Below, piece by piece: positions 1 to 64,000 of a stretch of DNA of 64,000 nucleotides; position 1 is the stretch's first letter; each line of letters opens with the position of its first letter. The stretch lies in the UHGV virus genome UHGV-1550212; one strand, 5' to 3'. A program made the position numbers and the translations under genes. The notes below the pieces were generated by a model that was given only the letters and a program-made list of their open reading frames with translations, made no database searches and was not told where the DNA came from. Source of the DNA: a virus.

Positions 1-646
1 CAATTACATCGTGGCCAATACCTGACATGGGCTCTGGCTCAGGTTCCGGTTCAGGTTCCGGTTCAGGTTCCGGTTCAGGCTCCGGTTCAGGTTCCGGTTC
101 AGGTTCCGGTTCAGGTTCCGGTTCCGGTTCCGGTTCAGGTTCCGGTTCAGGTTCCGGCTTGGGCTTTGATGAATAGTTAAACATCTTGTGAATCCATTTG
201 CACCACCATTTGTGACATGCATGTGCGCCATCATGATAATACGCTTGCAGCTCCATTGGAATTGCATGATATGCTTTGTCATGTGACATACCTTTGAATA
301 TTCGCAAGTACACATAGCACAAGCAATATGCAATGTAGTACATAAGCGGTGATGCAAGCAGCCACCACCAGCTAAGCACATTGCATGCTGCAAGCACAAT
401 AAGTACAAGCAACGTCGCAAGTGTTACAAAGATGAATTGCTTTGCATGCACAGCTTCATGCTTCAAGGTCTCAGAGTATCTGCTAAGTGTGTCATCATAT
501 GACTTATCACTTCTTATGAAGCACATTGCACACAACGACATTGCATAATAATGTGAAAATGGAATGCATGGCTGGTCGATGACAAGCATTGGTCCAGCAA
601 ACCACAGTCGCCACTGAGATTTATTTGGCAGTGTTGCAGTTTTCAT
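1..646 (-). CDS. HExxH metallopeptidase-like membrane protein with C-terminal (Glu-Pro)n linker; partial, 3' end beyond window
   Basis: ATG at 646..644 (minus), frame open to position 1, so absent from ORF track. Translation [19 protein letters not shown]...[24 protein letters not shown] (HEAVH = HExxH, then hydrophobic segments), ending in ~20 EP dipeptides. Confidence 0.55.
31..158 (-). repeat. Tandem GGTTCC/GGTTCA hexamer array (~21 units) encoding alternating Glu-Pro
   Basis: Direct reading; period 6/12 nt. The track ORF 4..420 (NLNRNL...) is the wrong frame of this array. Confidence 0.9.
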
Positions 647-672
647 AAATGATGTTTATTGTTTGATGATGA

Positions 673-700
673 AGACTGAAGAGCCGAAGCTCTTCAGTCT
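673..700 (-). terminator. 12-bp perfect stem hairpin, UUCG tetraloop on sense strand, after sheath gene stop
   Basis: AGACTGAAGAGC-CGAA-GCTCTTCAGTCT on plus strand; no clear U-tract, so may be an RNA stability element rather than a terminator. Confidence 0.35.
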
Positions 701-709
701 GTCAATTTG

Positions 710-3547
710 CTACTCAGCAGATGCACCTTGCAGTGACAATGTTGTACGATGTACGCCAATTCGAATGCCTTGAGCATTGATGATTTCAGTGTCAAGTACA
801 ATGAATCCGCGAGCAATCGTTTCATCATCATTGTTGCTGCTATCGCAGACATTCGTGTACGAAACTGCGCCACCGGCTGCAACGATGCCATCCATGAAGT
901 TGTCTGCTTTTGTTTTGACCTGCAAACGAACATTTGCAGTGTTTCGTTTGTACTGAGCAGACTTCAGATATGGCTCAATGTTGTCAGCGACATAGATGAG
1001 CAACTCAAGATTTTCAATGTAGCTGAATGCGCTGGTGTAAGCTACTTGTGCAGAACGAGATGTCAGCATTGTGATGACGCCTTGGTCTGAACGAGCGAGC
1101 ATGTTCCAACCTGCAGGTTCAAGGTCATCCATATCAGACCCTTCACCTTGCGAGACAATCATGTCAATGTCGGTTACACCAACACCAGACAGTGGCCACT
1201 CATCACCAGCAACGACGTCAAAGACATGCTTGCCTGCTTCTGTATGCTTTCTCATGAAGACATTCGACAAGATACCTGTTGCAGGAATCGTCATATCATC
1301 AATGCCATCATTGTAGCGAACATTGGCTACATATGTGATGAACGGTGCGCCATCAGTTTGACCTGCGAAGCTGAACAACTTGCTGTATGGTTTATCGGTG
1401 TTACCACCTGCAGCACAGTACTTAGACTCAATTGGGTCACCTGCATTGTCCTTAAAGTACGGGTCAGTTGAGCGGAACAAGTCATACTTGGTTGGCAGAG
1501 CAGAGAATGCGATTGCACGTTTTGAATCATTGCAAATCTTTGCAAACTCGTACTTTTGATTTGCTGCAATGTATGTCTTGAATGGGTCAACTACATAACG
1601 CCATTGACATTGATTGTGGTCCATCAAGCTACGATAAACGCCGCCTGAAATGAGAGCTTGCAGTACTTCTGTCTGACGTGCAGATGTGCCATCAACAAAT
1701 TGAGTTGCACGAAGAGCTACACCATGTAGATATGCGCCCTTGAAGAACTTAACTTGGTCAACAAGCTTCGTCAATGACCAAACAGACGCCTGCGAGGCGT
1801 ACTTCATCATTGAGCCATCTGCAAGTTCAAATTCGCCTTCAGCACCTGCAGCTTTGTATGCCAATGCACCAGTGAATTGATATTCAATCAGCACTTTGTT
1901 TTCTGCAAATGCGTCGTAGACATTCTTCTTCTCAAGCGGCGACAAATCAGCTTCAGTGATTGTGATTGGCATACCGCCATACTTGAGTGGCTTGTCTAAT
2001 GGCAGGCCATTTGAATCATATTCAACAAGGTCACCGCCATATGAAATTGTCTCACCTGCAGCTCTTGCTTTACGAGCTTTCGTTGATGAAGTTTCTGCAT
2101 CTGCAGACTCTTCGCCGCCAATTATGACTGTTGAGCCTTGTGGATAGATGAAGTTGCCCTTTGCATCCTGAGGGAATGCTACCTTTGCACCTGATTCGTT
2201 AGTGTACATTGGAATGCCGCCTTCCTTGCCAATGACAGGAACTGCGCGATATTCAGCTACAACTGCGCGACTTGTACAACGTACTGGCGAGCCATCTGCA
2301 CCAATAAAGATGTCGCCAAGCGAAATTGGCAACACTGGTGCAACAAATGAAGTCTTTGAAGCTTCACCTGGCTGCACAAATGGAACCATCACATTAACAA
2401 ACTCAGATGACACGAAGTCCTTGAGCTGTTCTTTTGTGATTGCGACATCTGTTGCTGTTGGCGTGCAGTCAATCTTTTCAGGATTGATGTCAGTTGACGG
2501 ACGAGCCATGCCAAGATATTGATGCGTAGCATCATCAGCAAACAGTGGACCTGCAGCGTCATCTACAGAAATGTAGTTCGAACCAAAGATGTCCACTGCA
2601 CGTTGGAAACGAGCATCTTCGATATCATTCGAATTGTAGAACTCGTCAACCTTGTCAGGGTCAATCTTACACATGATACCCGTCGTGTCTGACACTGCAT
2701 TCACAGCAGTTTCCAATGACAACTTGTTACCATTGATATCAAGCAAGTCAGGAATCAATGAGCCAGATACACGACCCATGTAGCCAGATGCAGCAAGCTT
2801 TGACAATGCCTCAGGACCATACATGCCATCAACTTGTGCACGGATACCATCCTTTGTGAAGTACTTGCCATATACAGTCGAACCTGCAAGTGACTCATAG
2901 TTCGTCAGCTTTTCAGAGAAGAACCAAACGTCAACCATATAGTCTGACACAAGGTCATTGCAATTCACGCCAGGCACATACATTGATGGGAAGCGGTCTT
3001 GAACTGACTTGATATCATAATCATAGCCAGTCAATGTCGTCGGCGTAATGAAGATTGTTGCAGACTTGTTTGTAAGTGTTGAGAAGTTGAGCAGTTGTAC
3101 AGGGTCAGTGCCAACTGCATTGAGCAGATTCAATGGCTCAGCTTTCCAGAAGTTTGATGTATCATAGACATCCTTAAATGGAACGTCTACAGGCGAGCCA
3201 TCTTCTCCTGAGCTGTTTGCAGCAAAAGTCACTCGTGACAACACATCGCTATCATTGAATGAGCGCAAGTTCAACACAAGAATTGGGCTTGTTGCAAGCA
3301 TTTGCTCTGCAATGAGACCAGCGAAACAGCCGGCACGCTCCAAACGCTTGTCACGTTGACCGAAAATTTCATGCAGCTGGTCTGCATCTTCAACAAGCGC
3401 GGCGCGATTGACCGGACCGTTCTTCCACTGGCCAGGCAGCAATCGAAGTGTTTGAGCGGGCAGTGAGTCAAGGCGACTTGCGTCAATGAACAGACGATAT
3501 GTCCCGACTGACTTGAACCGTTCAAATAAAGAAGTGTTATTTGCCAT
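710..3547 (-). CDS. Tail sheath-like structural protein (T4 gp18-like), 945 aa
   Basis: ORF 710..3631 trimmed to ATG at 3547 (MANNTSLFERF; ATG at 3628 also possible). C-terminus ...YTNVCDSSNNDDETIARGFIVLDTEI resembles the conserved sheath C-terminus as recalled; large size, structural neighbourhood. Confidence 0.5.
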   Translation of the reverse strand: MANNTSLFERFKSVGTYRLFIDASRLDSLPAQTLRLLPGQWKNGPVNRAALVEDADQLHEIFGQRDKRLERAGCFAGLIAEQMLATSPILVLNLRSFNDSDVLSRVTFAANSSGEDGSPVDVPFKDVYDTSNFWKAEPLNLLNAVGTDPVQLLNFSTLTNKSATIFITPTTLTGYDYDIKSVQDRFPSMYVPGVNCNDLVSDYMVDVWFFSEKLTNYESLAGSTVYGKYFTKDGIRAQVDGMYGPEALSKLAASGYMGRVSGSLIPDLLDINGNKLSLETAVNAVSDTTGIMCKIDPDKVDEFYNSNDIEDARFQRAVDIFGSNYISVDDAAGPLFADDATHQYLGMARPSTDINPEKIDCTPTATDVAITKEQLKDFVSSEFVNVMVPFVQPGEASKTSFVAPVLPISLGDIFIGADGSPVRCTSRAVVAEYRAVPVIGKEGGIPMYTNESGAKVAFPQDAKGNFIYPQGSTVIIGGEESADAETSSTKARKARAAGETISYGGDLVEYDSNGLPLDKPLKYGGMPITITEADLSPLEKKNVYDAFAENKVLIEYQFTGALAYKAAGAEGEFELADGSMMKYASQASVWSLTKLVDQVKFFKGAYLHGVALRATQFVDGTSARQTEVLQALISGGVYRSLMDHNQCQWRYVVDPFKTYIAANQKYEFAKICNDSKRAIAFSALPTKYDLFRSTDPYFKDNAGDPIESKYCAAGGNTDKPYSKLFSFAGQTDGAPFITYVANVRYNDGIDDMTIPATGILSNVFMRKHTEAGKHVFDVVAGDEWPLSGVGVTDIDMIVSQGEGSDMDDLEPAGWNMLARSDQGVITMLTSRSAQVAYTSAFSYIENLELLIYVADNIEPYLKSAQYKRNTANVRLQVKTKADNFMDGIVAAGGAVSYTNVCDSSNNDDETIARGFIVLDTEIINAQGIRIGVHRTTLSLQGASAE

Positions 3548-3653
3548 GTTCGTTATCGTATTTGTTGTAAATTGTGAAATGTTGCTTTGTTTGATTATAA
3601 CTTGATATATGTATGTATATGATGACATCAAACATGTTGTTGACCAAAATCAA

Positions 3654-9167: not shown

Positions 9168-10961
9168 TCAATTTTGTGTTGCAACGTCATCAGTCTTGTT
9201 ATCAACTGGCTCATCGTCGACATGTGTATCAACATCAATGCCAGAAGCTGCAGCAAGTGAAACATCATTAGCGACGCCTTGTTGTTCAAGTTGTTGTTGA
9301 GCTTGCTTTGTTTGAATTGCGACAAGTCTTGCAGCTTCCATTGCAAGCTTAAGATTCTCTTGAAGTTCGATATCAAGCTGTTCAGCATTAGCTTGCATGT
9401 CTTCTTTGCTTAAGCCAAGATACTTGTTGATAAGCCAATTGCTTGAGAAGAATGGGCGTTCAGTATCAGACATGTTAAGTGAACGAACAAGTGAACTGCG
9501 AATGTCTTCGATTGTATGAATACGCTTCTGAAGCAATGTGAGCTCCATTTGCGTCTGGAAATGATTGTATCTATTGAATTTGAGTTTTAGCGCATTCAAA
9601 ACTTCATTGTCGCCAATGTAGTTATTGTTTTTGATGCACATCAAAACATACACAGGCTTCAATATGATTGCAATGCCAAATCTACGCATCAAAGCTGAAA
9701 TAAAGATTGCAAAACGACGCTCATCACGCTGAATTGACTCTTCAGAAACATTCCACATGCCACCGCCATCATCGAATCTGCTTAGAGGCAGCTTTGACAG
9801 ACGTTGTAAGTTATTGCGGAAATATGTGACTGCTGAAGTATCAGATAAGTCAGGCATGCCTGTGCCAATTGTTTGAATGTTGGGTTTGCCTGCATTAGTG
9901 TCAGCCATCCAAAATTCGCTATTGAAAGGCACAGATGCTTCGCCATTAACTTGGAGTTCGCCGGTTTGATTGTCGAATTCAATTTTTTCGTGGTACTTAT
10001 TCATTGCTTTACGCAATGTTTCCTGTGCAGCAGCTTTCAGTTTACCGCCAGTAGGAATTGTGATAAGTGAACGAAAACGAGAAGCTGTCGTAGCATATGC
10101 AATGCGACTTCGCTCCAAAATCCTGAGCAAGTTGAATGCACGAACAAGACGCTCAAAATATGACATAGACCCAACCATGTCATCGTTCCACTGCAAATAT
10201 GCTACTTGCGAATCAAGCAAGTTGATTTTTTCTGAGTTGTTAGACACAAATGCTGGTGCTTTGACATCAAACATTGTATGTGTCTTGAACATATCTTGTT
10301 GAGACTTATCATACTGCCAGAAGAACATTTCACCCTTCTTCATAGGCGTCAATGCAAATGCATTCAACTTTTTGATGCCAACAATATCAGTCGGCTCATC
10401 TGCATTATCAAACACAATCTCATAGCCAAGTCTGCCTCGTACAAGATATTCACGCAACAATGCTCTAACATCTTGTTTGCGAGGTTCAGAGTTCAACCCA
10501 TTGAATGCATACATCAAATAGACTTGCTTGAATGCATCCATAAAGTCATCTTTGATTGTCTGCTTTGCTGTGTCGTCTATCTCAAGTTTATCGATGTCAC
10601 AAAAATCAGGCTCGCAAAAGAAATTACTATCGGAATTGAACACGATGCACTCATCAATCATGCGGTCAAGAATGTCGTCGAGTTCCGGTTCTGCACTTAA
10701 GATGTCATATTTTTTGGCTCGAAGATAACTTGTCAATCCAAAAAGATTCTTTTTAGGTGACTCTTTCTGATTGAACACGTCATCAGTAGACAACACAACA
10801 ACTTCTTGGTCATTGATGTTATGCTCACCTGTATATGCTGCTTTCTCCAAATCTGCATCAGACCCAGACTTGTGCACATTCAATTGCTGCAATGGACTGT
10901 CTTTCGGAATTGAGCGTAATGCATCAGTTCCCAGATATGTTCGTTTGGTCTTTTTAGCCAT
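9168..10961 (-). CDS. Portal-like protein (T4 gp20-like), 597 aa
   Basis: ATG at 10961; ...SEFWMADTNAGKP...YFRNNLQRLSKLPLSRFDD resembles portal core motif (VPLSRI region) as recalled. Confidence 0.55.
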   Translation of the reverse strand: MAKKTKRTYLGTDALRSIPKDSPLQQLNVHKSGSDADLEKAAYTGEHNINDQEVVVLSTDDVFNQKESPKKNLFGLTSYLRAKKYDILSAEPELDDILDRMIDECIVFNSDSNFFCEPDFCDIDKLEIDDTAKQTIKDDFMDAFKQVYLMYAFNGLNSEPRKQDVRALLREYLVRGRLGYEIVFDNADEPTDIVGIKKLNAFALTPMKKGEMFFWQYDKSQQDMFKTHTMFDVKAPAFVSNNSEKINLLDSQVAYLQWNDDMVGSMSYFERLVRAFNLLRILERSRIAYATTASRFRSLITIPTGGKLKAAAQETLRKAMNKYHEKIEFDNQTGELQVNGEASVPFNSEFWMADTNAGKPNIQTIGTGMPDLSDTSAVTYFRNNLQRLSKLPLSRFDDGGGMWNVSEESIQRDERRFAIFISALMRRFGIAIILKPVYVLMCIKNNNYIGDNEVLNALKLKFNRYNHFQTQMELTLLQKRIHTIEDIRSSLVRSLNMSDTERPFFSSNWLINKYLGLSKEDMQANAEQLDIELQENLKLAMEAARLVAIQTKQAQQQLEQQGVANDVSLAAASGIDVDTHVDDEPVDNKTDDVATQN

Positions 10962-16405: not shown

Positions 16406-17604
16406 TAACTGTCATACGACCAGTGACCACAGTCATACACTGGCACAAATCCAGTGTCAAGCATTTCTTGCTCAATAAAGCCATCATCAAGCAAATGTTC
16501 ACCTGACTTCGTATTGACCCAATGCTTCTTAATTGTGCATTCATCAACCACAAAGGGATTAAGTGCATTGTCAGTGCAATCAATGAACACATTATTCAAA
16601 TGCGCGTCAATGACATGCAGCACAATTTCTGGGTTGTGCCAATCAAATATCATAAGTGGCGTGTAGCCACATACAATTGCAAGTTGTTGCTTCCACCAAT
16701 GATAGTTTGGCTGTTTTGCTTCTGCGGCATTTCGTTTAAAGCCATACACGCTATTATGAGTATGCGTCGGGTTAACGTCAATTAGCAGATTGCCATAATA
16801 CAGGTCATATGATGTTATGCCAACATCATGTTCAAACTCAAAATGCACACCAAGATGTTCTTCAATGTATGATTGCCACCATCTGTTTGGCGCAGATATG
16901 ATTTGCCCATTTGCTTGCATACATTTATTTGTCATGCAAAACCATGGCACACCGTAACGTTCCATACAGGTTTTTGAAATTGCAGCAAGCCATTCATCTT
17001 TGTCTCTATGCGGCCATGCATAACCATAACGCAGACGACATGTTTGTTGAGCTTTAGCAACGATTGGCGCTAAACGTTCACCGTATATTTCACGTTTAGT
17101 TGCGATGGCTTTGCGTGGATTAGTCCATCCAGCATCACCCCATCGCTCAAGCTTCGTTTGCTGAGATTTTTCAACAATCAGTTCAAGATTCTCACCATAT
17201 TTTTGACGACGAGTTTGCATTGCTGCAACATAATCTGTAATGCATCTATGGCCATACAAACGTTCTTTTGTCGCACTATGTGCTTTATCGCCATATGAAC
17301 TGCCGTAGCGTGCAACTTTAGTGGCAATTGTTTGCTTGATGTTGCCTGCTTTAGAACCATAACGAGCTTCTTTAGTTGCTACGCATTTTTGTTTGACTTC
17401 TGCTCTGTTCCAATTATGCTCAACGCCATGTTTACGAAGATGGCCAATTTTCATGTTGTACACGTTTTTGATATGACCATGAGATGTCTTACGTGGTGCA
17501 TATCGTACAAATGGTGTTTCTGCAAGCAACTTATCTCGTTCAGCTTCAAGCTCTTTAATTCGAGCTTCAAGAGCTTCACCAGTCAAATGCTCTACATGTT
17601 TCAT
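16405..17604 (-). CDS. Repeat/nuclease-like protein, paralog of 10982..12220 (399 aa)
   Basis: GEALEARIKELEAERD; repeats ...TKEARYG...TKVARYG...KERLYG...REIYG...RLRYG...MERYG; C-terminus ...NLLIDVNPTHTHNS. Confidence 0.6.
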   Translation of the reverse strand: MKHVEHLTGEALEARIKELEAERDKLLAETPFVRYAPRKTSHGHIKNVYNMKIGHLRKHGVEHNWNRAEVKQKCVATKEARYGSKAGNIKQTIATKVARYGSSYGDKAHSATKERLYGHRCITDYVAAMQTRRQKYGENLELIVEKSQQTKLERWGDAGWTNPRKAIATKREIYGERLAPIVAKAQQTCRLRYGYAWPHRDKDEWLAAISKTCMERYGVPWFCMTNKCMQANGQIISAPNRWWQSYIEEHLGVHFEFEHDVGITSYDLYYGNLLIDVNPTHTHNSVYGFKRNAAEAKQPNYHWWKQQLAIVCGYTPLMIFDWHNPEIVLHVIDAHLNNVFIDCTDNALNPFVVDECTIKKHWVNTKSGEHLLDDGFIEQEMLDTGFVPVYDCGHWSYDS

Positions 17605-18101
17605 TCGTGTTTGCCAGTTTGAAATAACGAATCAATTGGGATGTGAATACCAGGTTTGGATTGAATGTTCCATCCGCGCGCCAAACCATTAAGTACGCAG
17701 CTCGTAAGGTAAGAAAACGCGTTTTGAGTTACTGTTGGGTCAAACATTTGCCACTTTGACGCCAAAATTAACATGGCTTCTGCTGCGACATCTGCTTGTA
17801 AGTCTTTGTCCCTGTAGTATAAACGTCTCTGCACATGTTTGATAAGCAACTCAAACATGTGTATAAGTTTATTTGACAGCTGTCCAGATACTTTGCATGC
17901 GCATATTTCTGCACAAAGTTCTTTGCTGTTGATGTAATAGTTTGATGGCTGACCTCGCTTCTTTGTGTTTGCAGCTTCTTCACGAAGTTGGTCTTCAAGT
18001 TGTGTCAACATGTCATCATCTGACACGTATTGAATATGCTTGTCTTCTGGTAGTTTAGATTCTATTGGTTGTAAGTTTTGCAGTGGCATAGCAGTGAGCA
18101 T
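17601..18101 (-). CDS. Late-transcription sigma factor-like protein (T4 gp55-like)
   Basis: ...SNYYINSKELCAEICACK...NAFSYLTSCVLNGLARGW resembles the gp55 pattern as recalled; start chosen at ATG 18101, downstream of promoter motif (alternatives 18140, 18089). Confidence 0.4.
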   Translation of the reverse strand: MLTAMPLQNLQPIESKLPEDKHIQYVSDDDMLTQLEDQLREEAANTKKRGQPSNYYINSKELCAEICACKVSGQLSNKLIHMFELLIKHVQRRLYYRDKDLQADVAAEAMLILASKWQMFDPTVTQNAFSYLTSCVLNGLARGWNIQSKPGIHIPIDSLFQTGKHE

Positions 18102-18117
18102 TAAAATTCCTATATAA

Positions 18118-18146
18118 ATTGTACAACGCTTTGTGCACATTTGCAA
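18118..18146 (-). promoter_or_regulatory. Sigma70-like promoter (sense: TTGCAA-N17-TACAAT)
   Basis: Direct reading; upstream of sigma-like gene. Confidence 0.45.
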
Positions 18147-22430: not shown

Positions 22431-22451
22431 AAGTTGTTTATTTTTGATTAA

Positions 22452-22481
22452 ATTGTACTACACATGTTGCAATTTTTGCAA
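22452..22481 (-). promoter_or_regulatory. Sigma70-like promoter (TTGCAA-N18-TACAAT)
   Basis: Direct reading; upstream of polymerase C-terminal gene. Confidence 0.45.
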
Positions 22482-23399: not shown

Positions 23400-23433
23400 C
23401 TTGTATCTATGTTGTTGATTTTCAATTTAATAT

Positions 23434-23462
23434 ATTGAACAACATTTGTTGACATTTTGCAA
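23434..23462 (-). promoter_or_regulatory. Sigma70-like promoter (TTGCAA-N17-TTCAAT)
   Basis: Direct reading; upstream of 22572..23399. Confidence 0.4.
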
Positions 23463-26229: not shown

Positions 26230-26244
26230 ATATCATTATCTTTT

Positions 26245-26655
26245 TTAGAATAGAGATATTGTACAACAATTTGATTCAGGTTGCCATTCTACAATATGCG
26301 CATCAAAGTGTTTGTTAAGCCAATGTGCAAGTATGTGTCTATGACAAAATGCAGATAGTCTGCACCAACATAACAATACAATGTCTCGTTCGCCTGCAAG
26401 AATCTTTATGCGATGCAGCATCAAACTTATCTGTGACAATGCAGCGTCAAGTTTTGCTGCATATTGCTCTGCATATTGTGCATTGTCAAGCAAGCCTGCT
26501 TTATGCAAACGAACAAGTGACATGTAATCAGGCATGACGTCAGTCCATGTAAAATCTGCTATGAAGCCCTTAGGCTTTGTTGCAGACACTTGAACAAGAA
26601 ATGCGTTATCAGGCAGATGCCTGCATGCATAATATGAAGTTAAGATTCTTGTCAT
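26245..26655 (-). CDS. DUF488-like protein
   Basis: ...DIVLLCWCRLSAFCHRHILAHWL resembles DUF488 signature as recalled. Confidence 0.4.
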   Translation of the reverse strand: MTRILTSYYACRHLPDNAFLVQVSATKPKGFIADFTWTDVMPDYMSLVRLHKAGLLDNAQYAEQYAAKLDAALSQISLMLHRIKILAGERDIVLLCWCRLSAFCHRHILAHWLNKHFDAHIVEWQPESNCCTISLF

Positions 26656-28307: not shown

Positions 28308-28350
28308 CTTATTTATGATTTGATGTCTTGTTATATTATTATATGTTGAT

Positions 28351-28379
28351 ATTGTACAACGCTAAGTGTCATTTTGCAC
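28351..28379 (-). promoter_or_regulatory. Sigma70-like promoter (GTGCAA-N17-TACAAT)
   Basis: Direct reading; upstream of 27738..28307. Confidence 0.45.
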
Positions 28380-30168: not shown

Positions 30169-30199
30169 TGTAGTAGAGGTTTGTTGTGTTCTGTATATT

Positions 30200-30221
30200 A
30201 TGTTCGAATATATGAGGACAT
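30200..30221 (-). promoter_or_regulatory. Leader palindrome ATGTTCGAATATATGAGGACAT (copy 1 of 3)
   Basis: Between promoter 30237..30265 and start codon 30168; near-identical copies at 47427 and 54380. Confidence 0.5.
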
Positions 30222-30236
30222 ATATTATATATAGAT

Positions 30237-30265
30237 ATATTACAACACGCAAATCATTTTTGCAC
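30237..30265 (-). promoter_or_regulatory. Sigma70-like promoter (GTGCAA-N17-TAATAT)
   Basis: Direct reading. Confidence 0.4.
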
Positions 30266-30659: not shown

Positions 30660-33600
30660 CTATCGAACAATCGATGTAATTGATGCTACTGGTATCGTAC
30701 CAATGATTGATGTAGTTGAGCGGAAGTCTGCATAGACTTTAATGTCAAATGTGAACTCCTTGCCACCAATGTAGCATATGAAATTCATTGTTTTTGTGTA
30801 TGACAGCTTATTTTGCTGAGCATTGCTATCAATATCAGATGAACCAACTGCATCAGTCATACGAGCTTGGAACAGCAATGGTATCAACAATGCATTATTT
30901 TCGCCAGGCTTAACTACATAAGCTGCAGAATCAGTGCTATTCGAAACTTGCATTTGATTGACTGCAGTTGGATTCAACAACAAGAATGCACCACGACTAT
31001 TTGCACCAACTGCATAGACATCATTGTCTGTGAATGCACATTTAGGTGCGTTTTCTGCAGTAAGTTCAAGTGGCAGAATCTGCTGATACTTTGATTTGAT
31101 GACAGAATTGAACTTAGCAAGCTCTGCAAATGCTGCAGTCAATGTTGCTTTTGTTTGTTCATTCTTATTTGCTGAGTATGCAATCCATGCTGGATGCTGA
31201 ACAGACATCAGATTGTATGCATCTGGTGATACTGTCGACTTCAATGCGATTGCTTCATAATCATCGCCATTCTTATGAACGAACTTGCGATTTGCTGCTT
31301 GTGCAGAAGTATCAATGTTTTGTGTTTCTACAGTAGACGATGATGGTGTTTCTGCAGCAACGTACAGCTTTTCTGTGCCTGCTACGTTTTTCAAGCCAGC
31401 ATACAATGTTTGACCCATGTATTGACGAGTGCCATACGGTGCTAAGATGTCATTGCTGTCATATGCATCGCTGTTAAGTACAACAGGTACGTCATAGACA
31501 TCTGCGAAATCTTGCAGCTTGTCTGTAATATGCTGTGACAAGTCGCCATGATATCGTGGGTACAATGAGATGTTTTCTGCACCAATGTTGTAGAACTTCA
31601 ACCAATATTGTCGAGTAAGCACTTTGCCATAGTTGTCTGCTGAAGTGATGTCAAACTTATCTGCATAAGTGCCTGCAAACAAAACATTGCTTGACCCATT
31701 CAGAATTTCTGTTTGATTGCCCTCATCATCTACAATTGCGACTCGAAGCATTGAGCCTTGATTCAAAATGATGTCTTTGAGCTGCGCAACTTCATTGCTA
31801 AGCGACAGTAGTTTTTCATATGTAGTCACTTTTGCAAGCTCTGATGTGAAGAAGCCTGATGCAATGTTTTGAGCATTGTGGGCGTAGTAGATGTTGTTTT
31901 CTGAGAATGCATCTGCAATATGCTTGATAAGTCCTTTGTTCTCAAGCATATTTTCAAGAGCCACATTTTGCTTATCAATTGCAAGTTCATCTTTAAGCGT
32001 GACGAACATTGCAGAAGCTGCAAGACTTTCTGGGAACTGAATGCTGACAATGTTTGACCACTCAGACTCATTGAGCACGTTTGGATAGCCTGCTTCACCA
32101 ATCGCCTTAACGCGGAACTGAACAATCTCATTAGCAGAAATTGGAATTTCAAGCTGATTGCATGAGATTGCGTCAATTGATTCTGAATTGATTGGCTCCC
32201 ATTGAATGCTACCATCGACAATGATTTTGCGACGAAGTGGCGTAAATACTTCATTCCATGTGCTAAATGCTGCTGTCGTAATTGTGCCTGCTGCATTTTC
32301 GATGTCAAATGTGTCTGCCTTTGCTACTGTGCCATTCAATGATGCATATCTGTACTGCACCTTGAATTGCACAATGTTTTGTGCTGCAGTAAACCTACTG
32401 ATTGCAGGGTCTTGTACCGGTAAGAAGCCTCGAACTCTGAACTTTGGATTGTACAATGCGTCATATGCAGCACCATTGATATTCAGCATCTCATCAATGA
32501 TATTTGTGAGTGTTTGCAGTCGTTCTGCTCTTTGCTGAGTCAATGTAACATATTGTGTAGATGCTTTTTGACGTTCAACGTCATTCTTGAAATTATTTGT
32601 ATTGAGCTTTGACATCACAGATGCGATATCAGAGTCAAGTACCGACATTTCTTGCTGAACTGCTCGTTTTTGATTGTACAATGACAAAATTCGAGATTTG
32701 TCAGTGTTGTCAATCAAATGCGTGTTAAGTTGAATGACTTTGAATGCTTCTGCTGACAATTGTAGACGATTTGGCTTAATTGCATATTGCGATGGCGCAA
32801 GCATATCAGTAGTCAATGCTGCAATATAAGCGCCAATTGATGCGTCGCCATGTGACAACATATACGAGTTTGCATTGACAAGCTCATTTGTTGCAGTACG
32901 AATTGTAAGTGTTGCAGTGTCAATCAAAACTGCTGGGCTGTACTGAGCTACTGTGTTGTATGCATCATGCACAGGCGACAAGAACAGCACGAATTTTTCA
33001 GAATGTCGAAGTGGCACTTCAACGACTTTTCTAACAACAGGCTCTACAAAGACGAGGTCAGTGACTTCTACATTCAATGCATTCAAGCCTGCAGTACGCT
33101 GCAGTATGCATGTTTGTGACAGTTTGTCAATTGAGACAATTTGCAGTAATACTGAACCAGTCGGGTCTGATAACGTGTCACCGACTTTCAATGTCAGTGA
33201 ACCGGCAGCCTTTGCGTCAATTGCATCATATACAATGCTGTCAAGTTTGACAGCGATTGTGCCATTGTTCGCATTTTGCTTCTTGAGAATTTTGAAGCTG
33301 CCACTTGATGCTGCTCGTCGTGGTCGCAAATTAACTGTGAAGTCTTCAAGAGTATAGTCATCATCAGTATGCCAGCCATGCGCATCAATTTCAGCAAGCA
33401 ATGCAGCATGGCTCATTTCAATGCCTGTTTGTGCCACAATTTGCTGCAATGCAGCAAACATGGCGTCTGAGCATATGTACTTTGTAACTTGACATTGTTT
33501 AAGATACGATGATGCTTGACCAGTCACATCAATTTGCACGTGCATACCAAGCGCTGTTGTGCGTTCAAGCATATCATTGCCAAGTGCGACAACATTGTTA

Positions 33601-33965
33601 TCTTCTGCTATCGTGCCTTGCAAAGTTTTCAAAGTCTCAGGCTGATTCAACAAGCTCATATGCACCATTGTACGCATATTGTTGTTTGCATCTACAAGTT
33701 GTGCATACAACTGCTCGCCATTATTTAAGCCTGTCAAGACTTTCATGTTTTGCTCAATGACAGCCATGCGACGTTGAATTGACGCAAAGCTTGGTACAGT
33801 AATGCTTGTTGTGCTGCCATCGTCATTTGTCAATGTTATTGTGACTGTATCTTCTGATGATGACACTGCAGCTTGCAGCACATCAAGGTATTGCAGACTA
33901 TTGTCATACAGTTGCTTAATGTCTGACAGCAATTGTTGCATTGCATTTGTTGAAACTTCTGACAT
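30660..33965 (-). CDS. Large virion protein (1101 aa), tail/baseplate candidate
   Basis: Trimmed to ATG 33965 (MSEVSTNAMQQ); size and neighbourhood only. Confidence 0.6.
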   Translation of the reverse strand: MSEVSTNAMQQLLSDIKQLYDNSLQYLDVLQAAVSSSEDTVTITLTNDDGSTTSITVPSFASIQRRMAVIEQNMKVLTGLNNGEQLYAQLVDANNNMRTMVHMSLLNQPETLKTLQGTIAEDNNVVALGNDMLERTTALGMHVQIDVTGQASSYLKQCQVTKYICSDAMFAALQQIVAQTGIEMSHAALLAEIDAHGWHTDDDYTLEDFTVNLRPRRAASSGSFKILKKQNANNGTIAVKLDSIVYDAIDAKAAGSLTLKVGDTLSDPTGSVLLQIVSIDKLSQTCILQRTAGLNALNVEVTDLVFVEPVVRKVVEVPLRHSEKFVLFLSPVHDAYNTVAQYSPAVLIDTATLTIRTATNELVNANSYMLSHGDASIGAYIAALTTDMLAPSQYAIKPNRLQLSAEAFKVIQLNTHLIDNTDKSRILSLYNQKRAVQQEMSVLDSDIASVMSKLNTNNFKNDVERQKASTQYVTLTQQRAERLQTLTNIIDEMLNINGAAYDALYNPKFRVRGFLPVQDPAISRFTAAQNIVQFKVQYRYASLNGTVAKADTFDIENAAGTITTAAFSTWNEVFTPLRRKIIVDGSIQWEPINSESIDAISCNQLEIPISANEIVQFRVKAIGEAGYPNVLNESEWSNIVSIQFPESLAASAMFVTLKDELAIDKQNVALENMLENKGLIKHIADAFSENNIYYAHNAQNIASGFFTSELAKVTTYEKLLSLSNEVAQLKDIILNQGSMLRVAIVDDEGNQTEILNGSSNVLFAGTYADKFDITSADNYGKVLTRQYWLKFYNIGAENISLYPRYHGDLSQHITDKLQDFADVYDVPVVLNSDAYDSNDILAPYGTRQYMGQTLYAGLKNVAGTEKLYVAAETPSSSTVETQNIDTSAQAANRKFVHKNGDDYEAIALKSTVSPDAYNLMSVQHPAWIAYSANKNEQTKATLTAAFAELAKFNSVIKSKYQQILPLELTAENAPKCAFTDNDVYAVGANSRGAFLLLNPTAVNQMQVSNSTDSAAYVVKPGENNALLIPLLFQARMTDAVGSSDIDSNAQQNKLSYTKTMNFICYIGGKEFTFDIKVYADFRSTTSIIGTIPVASITSIVR

Positions 33966-41296: not shown

Positions 41297-41300
41297 AGCA

Positions 41301-43638: not shown

Positions 43639-43668
43639 TGTTGTAGAGGTTTTATATTATATATTAAT

Positions 43669-43697
43669 ATATTACAACATTTGTTGTCAATTTGCAC
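43669..43697 (-). promoter_or_regulatory. Sigma70-like promoter (GTGCAA-N17-TAATAT)
   Basis: Direct reading. Confidence 0.4.
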
Positions 43698-47407: not shown

Positions 47408-47448
47408 TCTAAATGAGATTTAGATTATGTTCGAATATATGAGAACAT
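47408..47448 (-). promoter_or_regulatory. Leader element: inverted repeat TCTAAAT-GAG-ATTTAGA plus palindrome ATGTTCGAATATATGAGAACAT (copy 2)
   Basis: Immediately upstream of helicase ATG; near-identical to 54361..54402. Confidence 0.5.
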
Positions 47449-47465
47449 ATATTATTTGTAAAAAT

Positions 47466-47494
47466 ATAATACTACAATCAGCATACATTTGCAC
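47466..47494 (-). promoter_or_regulatory. Sigma70-like promoter (GTGCAA-N17-TATTAT)
   Basis: Direct reading. Confidence 0.4.
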
Positions 47495-48947: not shown

Positions 48948-48972
48948 ATTTTGGGATGTTTGTTTTTTATTA

Positions 48973-50067
48973 TCATACAACGATAGTATCTCGTTTGCAA
49001 TCTGTTTTGTCAAATATTGAACAACAATACGATGCAGATTGTTCTTTGATTTCAAGAGCTTCATCATTATCAAGTGATGAAATGCCATCTATGTATGCTT
49101 TTGCATTGCCAGCAATGTCATCATTTGTTAACAACGCTGCACGACGTTCAGTGCCAAAGAAGCCAAAGCACAATTGATGTTGCAGTGCTTCACGAGAAGT
49201 CTTGTCATCAAACTCTGATTTCATGTGTTGCATAAATTCGACAATATCATCAATGTCGCATTGAGTAAAGTCAATGCACAATTTATGCATGTACTTGAAT
49301 CGTTTGTAGTCTGTTGCAAGAATTTCTGGGTGCACAATGAACAACGTCTTTTTGCTGTCTATTGGATTTGCAATGACTGATGCTTGAACATAATCGACAA
49401 GCATACCAGATTCACGAAGTTGCTCAATTGTTTTGCCAAACACATGCCCAAGCGTGTCATCAAACCACTTCAAGTATGCTTCACTGTCTTCATCTTTTGA
49501 CGCGCCAACAATGTAAATCTCATTGACTCCAAGTGCTTTGAGACGAGTATCAGACAACATAGTATTCAATTGATGCTGCACGTACAGCATTGGGCTGCTA
49601 TGCAAAACCGTTTTAACAATCTCACAAGCAATGTCCATATATGCATAGTCAAGCTTTGCAGATTTTGACACATACACTGCACGTTGCTGCAATGGCTCAA
49701 TTGCCGAGCATGTAGTTACAAAGTTGCCAACACATTCTGCTACTGCAATGTCATGCAAGTCATCTGCAATGTACACAATACTTGACAAGTCATCAAATGT
49801 TTGAACAAGTTGCTGAAGCTTTGTTTTGTAATTGCAGAGCATCAATGACTTGATGTTGCAATTACTTAGCATTGTCTTGATGAGTCGTTGACCTGCTTCA
49901 GTGCTGTCACCAGAAATGACATGCACATCGCAGTCAAACCAGTTCAGCATGTCAATTGCATGCCGAACACCATATTGCATTTGTTTTGCAAACTTACCAG
50001 ATTCATTGAACAGCATTTCACCTGACATAATGCCGTCAAAGTCACATACGATTTGAAGTCTGTCCAT
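48973..50067 (-). CDS. HAD-superfamily phosphatase domain protein with C-terminal domain
   Basis: VCDFDGIM (motif I DxDG), VHVISGDS, IADDLHD. Confidence 0.55.
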   Translation of the reverse strand: MDRLQIVCDFDGIMSGEMLFNESGKFAKQMQYGVRHAIDMLNWFDCDVHVISGDSTEAGQRLIKTMLSNCNIKSLMLCNYKTKLQQLVQTFDDLSSIVYIADDLHDIAVAECVGNFVTTCSAIEPLQQRAVYVSKSAKLDYAYMDIACEIVKTVLHSSPMLYVQHQLNTMLSDTRLKALGVNEIYIVGASKDEDSEAYLKWFDDTLGHVFGKTIEQLRESGMLVDYVQASVIANPIDSKKTLFIVHPEILATDYKRFKYMHKLCIDFTQCDIDDIVEFMQHMKSEFDDKTSREALQHQLCFGFFGTERRAALLTNDDIAGNAKAYIDGISSLDNDEALEIKEQSASYCCSIFDKTDCKRDTIVV

Positions 50068-54358: not shown

Positions 54359-54360
54359 AT

Positions 54361-54402
54361 TCTAAATGAGATTTAGATTATGTTCGAAATATATGAGAAC
54401 AT
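54361..54402 (-). promoter_or_regulatory. Leader element (copy 3): TCTAAATGAGATTTAGA + ATGTTCGAAATATATGAGAACAT
   Basis: Immediately upstream of Mre11-Rad50 ATG. Confidence 0.5.
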
Positions 54403-54417
54403 ATATTATATGTTGAT

Positions 54418-54446
54418 ATTGTACAACATATGTTATCATTTTGCAA
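54418..54446 (-). promoter_or_regulatory. Sigma70-like promoter (TTGCAA-N17-TACAAT)
   Basis: Direct reading. Confidence 0.45.
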
Positions 54447-58109: not shown

Positions 58110-58164
58110 TGGCAGGTTTCTTGCTTTGTAAAGCTTGGATAGAGGATGGATTTTATATGTTGAT

Positions 58165-58193
58165 ATTGTACAACATGCAAAATGCATTTGCAT
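58165..58193 (-). promoter_or_regulatory. Sigma70-like promoter (ATGCAA-N17-TACAAT)
   Basis: Direct reading; proximal of a tandem pair. Confidence 0.4.
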
Positions 58194-59039: not shown

Positions 59040-59068
59040 ACAGTACAACGTAGTTATGCTCATTGCAC
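59040..59068 (-). promoter_or_regulatory. Weak sigma70-like promoter (GTGCAA-N17-TACTGT)
   Basis: Direct reading. Confidence 0.3.
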
Positions 59069-60616
59069 TTCTACGAATGGCTCTTTCAACACAAAGCTGT
59101 CACCATTGCAACATGCGGCTGAGCCATCGTCTGCATCAAGTGCACATGACATATCAGACTTGCAGAACTTGCAATATAAACATGACCATGCATGACTCAT
59201 GAAGTTGTTTGCTTCACAAATTGCGCAACGCTCATGCATAAGTGCATTGTCGCAATTATCACAAGACTTCTTGATTGGCACAGTTTTGTTGATGTATGCA
59301 AGATGCAATGCAATATCATACACAAAGTCACCCGTATATTGCTGAATGAAATCAGTATGCCACAACTCTTTTAACAATTGTGCATGTCTATATGGCTGAA
59401 CAATGTCTTCAAGATGCTGCAAGTCATCATCGCTAACCATGAGCTTCTTAATGACAAATTGTTTGAACTGTGGCCATCTGTCAAACATATAGAGTTTGCA
59501 TGAGTTGTGCACAAGTGGAACACAGCCAAGCACAATGCTTTCACAGAATCTACGCAAACTAAAACAGTTTGCATCATATGACGGCACAATCAATGTGAAT
59601 CTGCTATGCTTGATGAGTTCAAGGTATGTGTCATATGGCAGTAGCTTATCTGACAATTGCTGTTGTTGTTTGTCTCTGCTGAAAAATCTGAACACAATAC
59701 CCTTGTCAATTGCATCTTGATTGTGCAGATGCATGAGTTTGTTGATGAGTTCTGTGCGTTCAGTTTTGTCTCGCCAAGTATTCGTCAATGCAAATGCAAA
59801 ATTCAGTCGCTTGTCATCAAACGTCGCTTCAATATCATTCCAAGTTTTGTCATGCAAATACCAGTATTGCTGTGATGGGCACCATCCATAATATGCAATA
59901 GCATCTTGTTCTGCTGTAACGTCATACACATATGCAGAATTGTATTCAAGGCCAAGCCTTTTGACGTTGTTGCAGTCATGAAAGTACCAATGCTGCACTT
60001 TGAATATCTTTGATGCACTGAATGCGCTTTCATATGGCCCTGAATAGCGATAGTCAATGTAATTGAGCTTGTGCTGCAATGGGTCTTCGACAAAGTTGTT
60101 TATGACTGTGCCTTGTTGTTTGCCCTTAGTCTTGCGAGCATTCAATGCAACATTGTATTGCATGATGACTGACAGCATCTCATACACTACATACATGAGT
60201 GCTTTGTAGACTGAGCCTGCTGCGTCAATTAGTGGCAAATCACGTTTGACTGATGTAGCGCCAAATGTCTTGCAATATGCAGAAAATGTGTCAAGTTCTG
60301 CTTGCTGAAATGAATTGCATGCACCATTGAATATGTTGAATGTTGCAATGTAGCTCATATTGCAAGATGTCATTGACATATCAAGACGCTTCATAATGTC
60401 GACAATGCGACATTGAGCAAAATCTGACACATCAACATATTTGACATGATGGCCTGATGTAGTCAAGCCATCTGCGACATCTTTCATCTGTGGCACAAAG
60501 CCTACAACAATGAATAAGTCATCTTTGTTTGCTCGTTCAAACATTGCTGCACTTTTCCAAGTCAATGAATTGAAAAAGTCTATGTAGCCAGTTTGAGTGA
60601 TTATATGCGTTCTCAT
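59060..60616 (-). CDS. Glycosyltransferase-like protein (GT-B type), cassette 2
   Basis: ...VPSYDANCFSLRRFCESIVLGCVPLV; N-terminus also parallels 54780..56012. Confidence 0.45.
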   Translation of the reverse strand: MRTHIITQTGYIDFFNSLTWKSAAMFERANKDDLFIVVGFVPQMKDVADGLTTSGHHVKYVDVSDFAQCRIVDIMKRLDMSMTSCNMSYIATFNIFNGACNSFQQAELDTFSAYCKTFGATSVKRDLPLIDAAGSVYKALMYVVYEMLSVIMQYNVALNARKTKGKQQGTVINNFVEDPLQHKLNYIDYRYSGPYESAFSASKIFKVQHWYFHDCNNVKRLGLEYNSAYVYDVTAEQDAIAYYGWCPSQQYWYLHDKTWNDIEATFDDKRLNFAFALTNTWRDKTERTELINKLMHLHNQDAIDKGIVFRFFSRDKQQQQLSDKLLPYDTYLELIKHSRFTLIVPSYDANCFSLRRFCESIVLGCVPLVHNSCKLYMFDRWPQFKQFVIKKLMVSDDDLQHLEDIVQPYRHAQLLKELWHTDFIQQYTGDFVYDIALHLAYINKTVPIKKSCDNCDNALMHERCAICEANNFMSHAWSCLYCKFCKSDMSCALDADDGSAACCNGDSFVLKEPFVEVQ

Positions 60617-61779
60617 GATTTGAATGTTTGTTCAAGAATTGTATAGCACTGTGCAATCATTGTTGCAAGAGCTTTTTGCTGAAGCTGTTTGCAATTTGAA
60701 GATATTGTGTATTGCTGACGCTCAGTTGTAGTACTGCTTAATGTCGCAAATTGCAGGTACTCATCTTCTGACATGATATCAGCAAACAATGCAGACAATT
60801 CATAATCTACAATGACATTTGAGCAGTTTGCAAGTACGCCTTCAACCCATCGATTTGGCAACAAACATGCTTGCACATACAATGAATCGCCGACTACAAG
60901 ATTGCACATTGACTGCGACATTACATACGTCATCATGTCATATGGCACTTTGTACTTAAGTGTGAAGTTTTGTGCTGCTGACTTAATTGCTTGCAGAATT
61001 GTGTCATCAAGATATGATGTTATAAGGCAAGTATTGTATGCCTGCATAATGTAACGCTCAATCACGCTTCTACGATACTCGTCAAGATATGTGAAACCTG
61101 CACAACTTGCACAACATGCATATTGCTGCTTTATGTCAGCAAAGCTACACACATGCGCTTCAATTGCATTTTGCATTGTTGCTTGTCGTTTGAGCAATCT
61201 TGGCTCTTTAATGCATTGAAGCTTCAATGCATTGACTGCTGCAATGATTTGCAATGGCACAAACACGCATTGAGACTCATCAAGCCAAGCATACTTGAGA
61301 TTTTTATGTTGACACAGATGCGTAATGTTGTCTTTTTGTGATTCTAAGTACTCTTTGTAATTATGCAATCGCTTTGTCAATGTGCACTCTTTGTCAAAAT
61401 CAAATCGCAAATCAGTTGTTAGTGTAAATTTGCGAACATTTGACAAGCACCATGCTTTGAATGCATTCCACAGAACATCTTGCTGAAATTCTGAACAATG
61501 TTCAAGAGCAGCCTTTGAGCCCTGCCAGAATATTGCGCAATCATCTGATTTTGCACACTTCAGCATATCTTGCCATGCATGTATGCTATTGATGATATGC
61601 ACTTTATTATGCACAAGCTCATTAAGTGTTGCATGCTTGTTCTCAGGGTCGCCAAACACGTATACTGTATCAAACATTGTTTGAACAAACCCTGCAAATG
61701 CAATGGGTTCTGTATGTTTAAGATGCTGTATGTCTGAACGCACACATGTGTCAAATTTCAAAATGAAGAGTTTGCTCAT
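60613..61779 (-). CDS. Possible DNA glycosyltransferase, cassette 2 partner
   Basis: ...IFWQGSKAA...TLTTDLRFDF; paralog of 56000..57175. Confidence 0.4.
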   Translation of the reverse strand: MSKLFILKFDTCVRSDIQHLKHTEPIAFAGFVQTMFDTVYVFGDPENKHATLNELVHNKVHIINSIHAWQDMLKCAKSDDCAIFWQGSKAALEHCSEFQQDVLWNAFKAWCLSNVRKFTLTTDLRFDFDKECTLTKRLHNYKEYLESQKDNITHLCQHKNLKYAWLDESQCVFVPLQIIAAVNALKLQCIKEPRLLKRQATMQNAIEAHVCSFADIKQQYACCASCAGFTYLDEYRRSVIERYIMQAYNTCLITSYLDDTILQAIKSAAQNFTLKYKVPYDMMTYVMSQSMCNLVVGDSLYVQACLLPNRWVEGVLANCSNVIVDYELSALFADIMSEDEYLQFATLSSTTTERQQYTISSNCKQLQQKALATMIAQCYTILEQTFKS

Positions 61780-62416
61780 ATGCTTTGCAATTATCTATTA
61801 CATGTTGATATTGTACTTCATCTATGATGTGATTTGCAATGACACCATATGACGTGTCATACATTGGCATCTTCTCATATGACAATGCTGCGTCAAGATT
61901 GCATATCACATAATTGCAATGCACAATGTCATCTACATTGTCACTAACTGCTACGATATTGACGCAATTTGCAAGAAATGCATCATCAAAGTCTACTTGA
62001 TTGCATGCAACCTCATAATCTGCAGCACTTCTTGGGTACCAATATAACTCAATGCCGGCACTACTAAGTAGTCGCAAGCCATCTATGTGATGATACAAGT
62101 CAACAAAATGCACTTGCTTAACGCCTGCTTGCAAAATAAGCTTTGCGCAATCAATGCATGGACTATATGTTACATATAGCACTGCGTCATTTGCAGTCGC
62201 ATTGCCATATTTGCACAGCTTCATCAATGCATTTGATTCTGCATGCAAAACTTCTTTGTTGGTTTTGATGCCTGCTGATGTTGCATGTTCACAACAATTT
62301 GACATGCCAGTTGGCATGCCATTGTAGCCATCTGAAATTATGCAGCCATCTTTTACAAGCAATGCGCCGACTTTTGCTCGCTGAGCATGTGAATTTAATG
62401 ACCAGAGCTCAGCCAT
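61751..62416 (-). CDS. dCMP deaminase
   Basis: HAESNAL (H-A-E zinc motif), SPCIDCAKLI (PCxxC); start chosen at MAELW (62416), ATG at 62476 also in frame. Confidence 0.75.
   Translation of the reverse strand: MAELWSLNSHAQRAKVGALLVKDGCIISDGYNGMPTGMSNCCEHATSAGIKTNKEVLHAESNALMKLCKYGNATANDAVLYVTYSPCIDCAKLILQAGVKQVHFVDLYHHIDGLRLLSSAGIELYWYPRSAADYEVACNQVDFDDAFLANCVNIVAVSDNVDDIVHCNYVICNLDAALSYEKMPMYDTSYGVIANHIIDEVQYQHVIDNCKAYEQTLHFEI
61810..61839 (-). promoter_or_regulatory. Sigma70-like promoter (TTGCAA-N18-TACAAT) inside 3' end of deaminase gene
   Basis: Direct reading. Confidence 0.4.
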
Positions 62417-62480
62417 TTTAAGATATATGAGATTTCGTTGAAACCACTTTGTTTCAGACCAAGTTAGCCATTTCATATGC

Positions 62481-63863: not shown

Positions 63864-63892
63864 GTTCGTATTGTTTTATCATATATGAATAT

Positions 63893-63921
63893 ATTGTACA
63901 ACATGTATTGAGCTTTTGCAC
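63893..63921 (-). promoter_or_regulatory. Sigma70-like promoter (GTGCAA-N17-TACAAT), proximal
   Basis: Direct reading. Confidence 0.45.
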
Positions 63922-63945
63922 AACACTTGTTGTTAAAATATCGTC

Positions 63946-63974
63946 ATTGTACAACATAAAGTGCATACTTGCAC
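63946..63974 (-). promoter_or_regulatory. Sigma70-like promoter (GTGCAA-N17-TACAAT), distal
   Basis: Direct reading. Confidence 0.45.
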
Positions 63975-64000
63975 TTTGTGTTGCTAAAAATATCGTTATT

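Follow-up and report, generated by a model that had tools for sequence, protein, structure and literature searches.

We observed that the translation starts of a 64,000-nt stretch of the virus genome UHGV-1550212 carry no Shine-Dalgarno (SD) sites, and that this absence is real and general to all the genes tested. The stretch, called the window here, comprises positions 1-64000 of a genome of about 176 kb, of which about 112 kb lies outside it. Its leaders were found to carry the translation-initiation signature published for the Bacteroidia. This signature, along with the hosts of the cultured relatives and the gut origin of the sequence, makes a host from the Bacteroidota, most likely from the class Bacteroidia, highly probable. 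Genes were called with a codon-position Markov model, gap filling and a first-ATG rule. The G+C content is about 40%, the long open reading frames (ORFs) lie nearly all on the minus strand, and the called genes (about 66 on the minus strand and 3 on the plus strand) make the window 95.5% coding under the standard code. Gene calls and SD statistics together describe a segment of a T4-related myovirus with SD-less initiation regions throughout (1..64000, minus strand).

We estimated SD pairing in the region from -20 to -1 of each start, using the best duplex energy with the 16S tail ACCUCCUUA. An SD core was scored as GGAG, GAGG, AGGA or longer at a spacer of 3-12, and the cut-off for the duplex energy (dG) was set at -4.4 kcal/mol. 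None of the 65 minus-strand starts of the first-ATG set had a core of at least four nucleotides, and none reached the energy cut-off (0/65). The mean anti-SD dG was -0.03 kcal/mol at the starts, as against -1.35 at 375 internal in-frame ATGs (Mann-Whitney p = 8e-7) and -1.1 at random positions (Mann-Whitney p = 7e-6). SD-like pairing at the starts is thus below chance, since the leaders are depleted of G. The strongest partial match was an AGGA at a spacer of 7 (dG -4.2), before the sigma-like gene that starts at 18101. As a positive control, the annotated starts of phage T4 were scored: 68% were at -4.4 or stronger and 58% had a core of at least four nucleotides, with G reaching 66% at position -9 of the leaders. 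The original prediction had reported no SD sequences at the starts that it inspected, and this was borne out by our own starts and by an independent set (0/65 and 0/56 at -4.4, with T4 at 68%). Anti-SD complementarity computed over all starts was weaker than background, and conventional SD motifs did not emerge.

The independent set consisted of third-party gene calls on contigs of the same phage (56 starts, of which 50 were identical to our own calls). All 56 starts were ATG, none reached a dG of -4.4, and a 4-mer was seen in 1/56. These calls also bear on the possibility that the true starts do have SD sites and that the wrong ATGs were picked. Some starts are indeed ambiguous, as 19 of the 66 longest minus-strand ORFs open with TTG or GTG, and six of the 56 independent calls differ from ours. 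However, the independent calls also gave 0%, and when the most SD-like start within 50 codons was taken for every ORF, just 17% reached -4.4, in comparison to the 68% of T4. The coding strand as a whole has only 5 GGAGG and 7 AGGAG over the 64 kb, almost all of them deep within genes. A sharp peak of A at -13 and a dip in folding energy, both described below, are centred on the chosen starts, which are therefore largely correct. Mis-called starts are effectively excluded as an explanation, and we leave them only the slightest chance. The sole strong SD-like site with an in-frame ATG, GGAGGATTTGATG (GGAGG at a spacer of 5; 19231-19248, minus strand), lies inside the gene 18206-19495. It is compatible with chance, given the five GGAGG on the strand, but could mark an internal start.

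We then evaluated the composition of the leaders. The region from -20 to -1 had frequencies of 0.42 for A, 0.20 for C, 0.11 for G and 0.27 for T, and the G value compares with 0.21 for the strand background (binomial p = 1e-20). The earlier description of the leaders as A/T-rich holds for A, and is refined by the shortage of G. The enrichment of A spans -15 to -12, with 55-68% at -14, 66-70% at -13 and 54-57% at -12 over a background of 32%. At -13 it was 66% in our set (p = 2e-8) and 70% in the independent set (p = 8e-9), where -14 had 68%. At the 32 starts whose positions -15 to -12 fall inside the upstream ORF, the enrichment was kept (51% A), so that the signal is not merely a reflection of AT-rich intergenic sequence. 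At -3 and -6, A was at 45% and 42%, no higher than the leader average.

The surroundings of the starts were also poor in ATG. Between -40 and +23 the ATG frequency was 0.015-0.018, about 2-fold below the strand-wide 0.033, although this estimate comes from small counts of 18-26 ATGs per region. The AUG/GAU ratio was 0.86 upstream, as against 1.8-1.9 in mid-gene. Segments of 40 nt centred on the start had a mean folding energy of -2.4 kcal/mol, while internal segments had -6.2 (p = 1e-17). In the Bacteroidetes, A is over-represented from -14 to -11, with a functional role at -12 and -13, a pattern called 'characteristic of the Bacteroidetes' (Baez et al. 2019, PMC6847099); in the same study, AUG was under-represented near the start and start regions were unstructured. 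The leaders of the window carry this published signature. We observed the same in phages related to the one studied here. Chryseobacterium phage MA9V-2 had 0% SD by the same method and 67% A at -14 and -13, phage PAU had 5-8% SD, which is PAU's own background level, and the metagenomic relatives L010 and L011 (with identities of 62% and 48% in the thymidylate synthase ThyA) had an SD core at 0/27 starts in third-party calls.

These results suggest that the mRNAs are adapted to the ribosomes of a Bacteroidia host. Two reports describe sequestration of the anti-SD by bS21, bS18 and bS6 in Bacteroidia (Jha et al. 2021, PMC7797042; PMC13000453). With the 3' tail of the host 16S sequestered in this way, an SD would be of no benefit. 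The starts are marked instead by a G-poor and A-rich leader with extra A at -12 to -15, by fewer nearby AUGs and by exclusive use of AUG (as in the 56 independent starts), features that together leave the start region unstructured. Gene junctions are tight, with 34/65 overlapping or at most 15 nt apart, and re-initiation coupling is therefore plausible; terminating ribosomes that re-initiate probably contribute at about half of the junctions. A second and less likely possibility, suggested by their below-background level, is that the phage actively avoids SD-like sequences, as a means to escape SD-competent ribosomes lacking bS21, which exist in Bacteroidia according to a further report (PMC9976891).

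To place the phage, we compared its proteins with PHROG, Pfam and phage records. The structural proteins include a tail sheath, a T4-type portal, a prohead protease (at the N-terminus of a 1371-aa protein), gp2 and gp13, and this T4-type module fits the T4-related large myoviruses of Bacteroidota. Replication and recombination are represented by DNA polymerase B in two ORFs, a helicase, a 1308-aa SbcCD-like protein and an RNase T-like exonuclease, and nucleotide metabolism by dUTPase, MazG, dCMP deaminase and two proteins of the thymidylate-synthase family. Two proteins served as markers in tblastn searches, the portal (9168..10961, minus strand) and a conserved 1101-aa protein (phrog_29329; 30660..33965, minus strand) that, among phage records, was seen only in this phage group. 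The 1101-aa protein matched 31 phage records, all in the PAU/PTm1/MA9V group, with alignments over 96-99% of its length. The best matches of both markers, at 26-33% identity, were the Chryseobacterium phages MA9V-1/2, the 'Sphingomonas' phage PAU, the Tenacibaculum phages PTm1, PTm5 and pT24 and the Flavobacterium phage MaF61. Uncultured huge phages and Prevotella Lak phages were also among the relatives of the two proteins. Among the protein-level relatives are the uncultured phages LR756500-LR756504, which we take to be the huge phages of Al-Shayeb et al. 2020. Megablast of 12 kb against GenBank phages gave no match at the nucleotide level. PTm1 and the Lak phages have been placed in jumbo-phage group 2.2 (PMC7824862).

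The host strain of PAU was reassigned to Sphingobacterium (Bacteroidetes), going by the title of White & Suttle 2013 as cited in PMC10537231, and with this reassignment every cultured relative infects Bacteroidota. The GenBank record of PAU (NC_019521) still names Sphingomonas paucimobilis as the host. The segment 90000-139999 of that record has a G+C content of 31% and lacks SD sites like phages of Bacteroidota, in agreement with the reassignment.

Human gut metagenomes (ZEEV15-series samples) yielded contigs of 128-181 kb with proteins identical to those of the window; such proteins were also found on a 175.5-kb IMG/VR contig and in dozens of other assemblies. We infer a genome of about 175.5-181 kb because independent assemblies converge on that span. 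The longest contigs cluster at 175.5-181 kb, which would place the genome below the 200 kb that define a 'jumbo' phage.

Three independent but indirect lines, namely the leader signature, the hosts of all the cultured relatives and the gut origin, make Bacteroidota the best reading of the SD-independent initiation, as the original prediction had proposed. A G+C content of 40-41% is compatible with Bacteroides, Phocaeicola or Prevotella. Several points weigh against this host assignment. A direct host link did not emerge: the tRNA scan of the window gave none, two scans of GTDB species genomes (with portal and ThyA) for binned or integrated copies or host-like homologues gave nothing, and the search for ThyA homologues gave no host signal, its nearest matches being metagenomic, phage-like sequences. 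The identity of ThyA to named cellular homologues was about 38-41%, over mixed phyla. The depletion of ATG, as noted, comes from small counts. Low SD usage is also seen in some Cyanobacteria and Mollicutes, so that SD absence alone is not unique to Bacteroidota, and many of the weaker portal matches were to cyanophages. An SD-less host outside the Bacteroidota, such as gut Melainabacteria/Cyanobacteriota or Mollicutes-like lineages, is thus possible but unsupported, and we consider it improbable. The closest relatives by the two markers infect Bacteroidota or are predicted to, the enrichment of A at -11 to -14 is characteristic of Bacteroidetes (PMC6847099), the profile recurs in MA9V-2 with its 67% of A at -14 and -13, and the sequence recurs across many human gut samples.

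A further point against reading the host from the leaders comes from huge phages that may encode rpS1, in which an SD can seldom be identified (Al-Shayeb et al. 2020, PMC7162821). A phage-encoded S1-like protein, bS21 or initiation factor might make initiation independent of SD in any host. There are known cases of bS21 genes in phages (PMC9723584), and the 112 kb outside the window would leave room for such a gene. When we examined 40 window proteins with Pfam and the 10 largest others with PHROG, no match to S1, bS21 or an initiation factor was seen. The replication and sigma-like genes, which are needed before such a factor accumulates, are also without SD. An extra phage factor is moreover unnecessary, since the pattern equals the published host-type signature, and we consider this explanation very unlikely. 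The adaptation of the leaders to Bacteroidia ribosomes is the reading that we retain.

The original prediction had also noted a sigma70-like promoter motif, and had held that its combination with the lack of SD constrains the host. A repeat search followed by an iterated weight-matrix scan gave 13 copies of a 44-nt element, TGCAAA-N16/17-TACAAT; the coding strand carries them all and the opposite strand has none. Its conserved blocks are (T)GCAAA and, 12 nt further on, TGTTGTACAAT(A/T)T. The core TGCAAA-N15-18-TACAAT had 7 occurrences on the coding strand, none on the opposite one and 0.2 in shuffled sequences. Twelve of the 13 copies are intergenic, with the weakest within the 3' end of a gene, and several lie directly 3' of terminator hairpins. 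The element precedes replication, nucleotide-metabolism and sigma-like genes, and not structural genes.

All copies are on the minus strand. Copy 1 (63930..63973; TGCAAG...GTTGTACAAT) stands in tandem with copy 2 (63877..63920), which is 13 nt upstream of the ATG at 63863, and copy 3 is at 58149..58192. Copy 4 (54402..54445), which a sigma70 scan reads as TTGCAA-17-TACAAT, is upstream of the SbcC-like gene (ATG 54358); copy 5, the weakest (48956..48999), is at the 3' end of the gene 48973-50067; and copy 6 (47450..47493) is upstream of the helicase gene (ATG 47407). Copy 7 (43653..43696) follows a terminator hairpin at 43737-43765 and precedes the leader of the gene starting at 43638, while copy 8 (30221..30264) is upstream of the leader at 30168. 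Copies 9 (28335..28378) and 11 (23418..23461) belong to the ATGs at 28307 and 23399. The DNA polymerase gene (ATG 26229) has copy 10 (26242..26285) and the second DNA polymerase B ORF (ATG 22430) has copy 12 (22436..22479) upstream. Copy 13 (18102..18145) stands after a terminator hairpin and before the sigma-like gene, and is conserved in the 97%-identical relative L008.

The positions of these copies also bear on whether the mRNAs could be leaderless, lacking SD because translation begins at the 5' end of the transcript. Some copies are near the ATG, with the -10-like hexamer ending 16-21 nt before the ATGs at 18101 and 22430. However, about 13 promoter copies serve about 69 genes, so that most genes are internal to operons; the distance from hexamer to ATG is 16-68 nt, implying leaders of about 9-60 nt; and a signal of A at fixed positions, -12 to -15, presupposes a leader. 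Leaderless mRNAs are excluded by this operon structure and leader signal.

The likeness to sigma70 promoters held in part. The geometry of the element is sigma70-like and about 9 of its 12 positions agree with the sigma70 consensus (TTGCAA-17-TACAAT), but generic sigma70-type matches were at chance (57, with 56.8 +/- 8.4 in shuffled sequences), and what recurs is a longer, phage-specific element. Its blocks GCAAA and GTTGTACAAT reach beyond the sigma70 hexamers, and it differs from the canonical TTGACA-17-TATAAT. The promoter consensus of Bacteroidota is TTTG at -33 and TAnnTTTG at -7 (PMC6847099). On the coding strand TAnnTTTG was at chance (25, with 24 +/- 5 expected); a single intergenic copy was found (at 41237, in the gap 40990-41300; 1.1 expected), and two-part TTTG/TAnnTTTG matches were absent from intergenic sequence. 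We therefore rejected the Bacteroidota sigma-ABfr class for the window, its TAnnTTTG and two-part variants being at chance and not intergenic.

The promoter model of the window did not recur in MA9V-2, PAU or T4, save for one weak match in MA9V-2. Related phages of Bacteroidota hosts have their own motifs upstream of genes, which are not of the host type. In the relative L010, cores of the type GTTGTA(T/A)AAT were found upstream of the helicase gene and of the small ORF preceding it, and in L011 the SbcC-like gene had the core TTGTTGTATGAT upstream. That such diverged relatives carry cores at matching gene positions hints at conservation of the core.

The claim that promoter and SD absence jointly constrain the host did not survive, as the promoter is phage-specific and resembles neither host consensus. 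It says little about the host, because the element is phage-specific and one of the phage's own proteins is related to sigma-70 region 2; the promoter neither contradicts nor refines the Bacteroidota assignment. Transcription in the region probably starts at the two-part element TGCAAA-N16/17-TACAAT. Phage factors, the sigma-70 region 2-like protein among them, probably redirect the host RNA polymerase to this element and to the shorter element of the structural genes described below, and such redirection would account for the lack of resemblance to either host consensus. We tentatively raise the idea, which at present we hold to be rather unlikely, that TGCAAA-N16/17-(GT)TGTACAAT is a class of phage middle promoter with sigma70 -35/-10 geometry in a phage that infects Bacteroidota. 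If this is true, a phage factor (an analogue of MotA/AsiA or a new sigma) would retarget the Bacteroidota RNA polymerase from TTTG/TAnnTTTG to another architecture.

The sigma-like protein has 166 aa and is a candidate phage late sigma factor (17601..18101, minus strand; sequence comparison). It has 36% identity (E = 6e-31) to an MA9V-2 protein annotated 'sigma-70 region 2', while its match to Pfam Sigma70_r2 is weak (E = 0.006, under the curated cutoff). By analogy with T4 gp55, we propose it as a candidate for the late sigma factor. Sequences of the type TGTA(C/T)A(C)ATAT precede the structural genes at 33965, 39220 and 7820. They read TGTACATATTC (33966-34010), TGTATATATCC (39221-39260) and TGTACACATAAC (7900-7930), all on the minus strand, and the first two come just after terminator hairpins. 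In PAU, TATACATAT was found in 14/75 upstream regions. This motif is a candidate late promoter common to the phage group, possibly read by the sigma-like protein, and the shorter element may thus serve the structural genes. The T4 late promoter TATAAATA was absent from both strands of the window.

The earlier observation that two leaders share AAACCTCTAC(A/T)ACA before the ATG was confirmed on the minus strand. The leader AAACCTCTACTACA (30169..30182) is directly 5' of the ATG at 30168 for a 78-aa protein, and AAACCTCTACAACA (43639..43652) is directly 5' of the ATG at 43638 for a 73-aa protein. This 14-mer has only two copies in the window, and on alignment both were seen to be the tail of a duplicated promoter-plus-leader cassette. 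The shared leader AAACCTCTACWACA contains CCUC, which reads in the sense of the anti-SD core itself and so cannot pair with it. We rejected AAACCTCTACWACA as an element of general use in translation, with only two copies, both within the duplicated cassette. We read the shared leader as a duplicated regulatory cassette and not as a translation signal. The two downstream proteins have no obvious similarity when their translations are read by eye, no formal comparison having been made.

A second repeated leader module of about 40 nt, CTCATATAT(T)TCGAACATAATCTAAATCTCATTTAGA, occurs downstream of the promoter element. It was found as TGTTCTCATATATTTCGAACATAATCTAAATCTCATTTAGAAT before the SbcC-like ATG at 54358 (54359..54401), in a near-identical copy (family D10) before the helicase ATG at 47407 (47408..47449), and as a diverged third copy before 30168 (about 30183-30220), all on the minus strand. 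The module may serve as a common operator, as a second promoter or as a cassette for co-regulation, and recalls the mobile promoter-stem-loop cassettes of T4-type phages.

We also noted several other features of the window. The family B DNA polymerase is encoded in two parts on the minus strand, an exonuclease/N-terminal ORF (24724-26229) and a polymerase-domain ORF (21138-22430), which are separated by about 2.3 kb holding dUTPase, MazG and two further genes; the split in MA9V-2 is comparable ('DNA polymerase II' and 'DNA polymerase family B'). The nucleotide-metabolism set is dense, with a canonical ThyA, the second and divergent thymidylate-synthase-family protein, dCMP deaminase, dUTPase and MazG, and the genes of two paralogous GT47-like glycosyltransferases share a 99-nt DNA repeat (55047 and 59540). 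These nucleotide-metabolism and GT47-like genes are on the minus strand at 43784-44842, 48066-49013, 61751-62476, 23844-24335, 23468-23842, 54780-56018 and 59060-60616. They may point to hypermodified and possibly glycosylated DNA; hypermodified DNA has been reported for the relative PAU (PMC7824862).

A 12-nt tandem repeat, GGTTCCGGTTCA, is present in about 11-14 copies at 6-185, in the minus-strand ORF 2-646. It encodes a run in which Glu-Pro is repeated about 27 times, close to the C-terminal end of a protein that is rich in Trp and Cys and probably lies in the membrane. Two DUF7487 paralogues (36% identity, E = 1e-75; 10982-12220 and 16405-17604, minus strand) flank the head-completion/gp2 region, and the first holds three tandem copies of a 30-nt repeat (10997-11086). 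Two gaps of about 300 nt (40990-41300 and 36624-36911) had no convincing ORF, Rfam hit or tRNA, although a third-party call puts a 94-aa ORF in the gap at 36624-36911. The Rfam scan of the whole window gave no match.

SD-free initiation is already described for Bacteroidota and for huge phages, and the window is one more phage case, real yet ordinary. It adds no new translation biology, the same regime being described for Bacteroidia. Its practical value is in the assignment of a host: leader signature and phage relatedness connect a widespread gut phage of about 176 kb, as yet uncultured, with a Bacteroidota host without cultivation. Gene prediction in this phage also calls for start models that do without an SD. 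Only the phage-specific promoter set is possibly new, as it concerns how a T4-like phage reprograms the unusual RNA polymerase of Bacteroidota.

When compared with known systems, the window resembles Bacteroidia-type initiation, for which Flavobacterium johnsoniae is the model, in the lack of SD, the A at about -11 to -15 with its maximum at -13, the scarcity of AUG around the start, the little structure and the strong dominance of AUG start codons. It differs from that model in that the mRNAs are of a phage rather than of a cell, and in that the preferences for A at -3 and -6 are weak. With the huge phages of PMC7162821 it shares a large genome without canonical SD; in those phages the absence is tied to S1-like genes, while none of these was found in the 64-kb window. 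The likeness to the MA9V/PAU/PTm1 group extends to the T4-type portal, the 1101-aa signature protein, a giant head protein containing the protease, the tail sheath, the sigma-70 region 2-like protein and a similar gene order around DNA polymerase, sigma and portal. Unlike the cultured relatives of this group, which have genomes of 168-235 kb and come from soil, sewage, marine or insect material, the phage of the window has about 176-181 kb and comes from the human gut, and its protein identity to them is only 26-33%.

Phage T4 offers the closest parallel for the promoters. Its middle promoters combine a MotA box at about -30 with a sigma70 -10 element, and its late promoters have TATAAATA, read by gp55. 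As with these stage-specific promoters, a phage-specific two-part element stands in the window before replication and nucleotide-metabolism genes, with a TGCAAA block at the position of the -35 or MotA box and a -10-like TACAAT, and a small sigma-like protein is encoded separately. Unlike in T4, the sequences of the elements are different, no MotA or AsiA homologue was identified, and the host RNA polymerase is presumably of the Bacteroidota type that recognises TTTG/TAnnTTTG.

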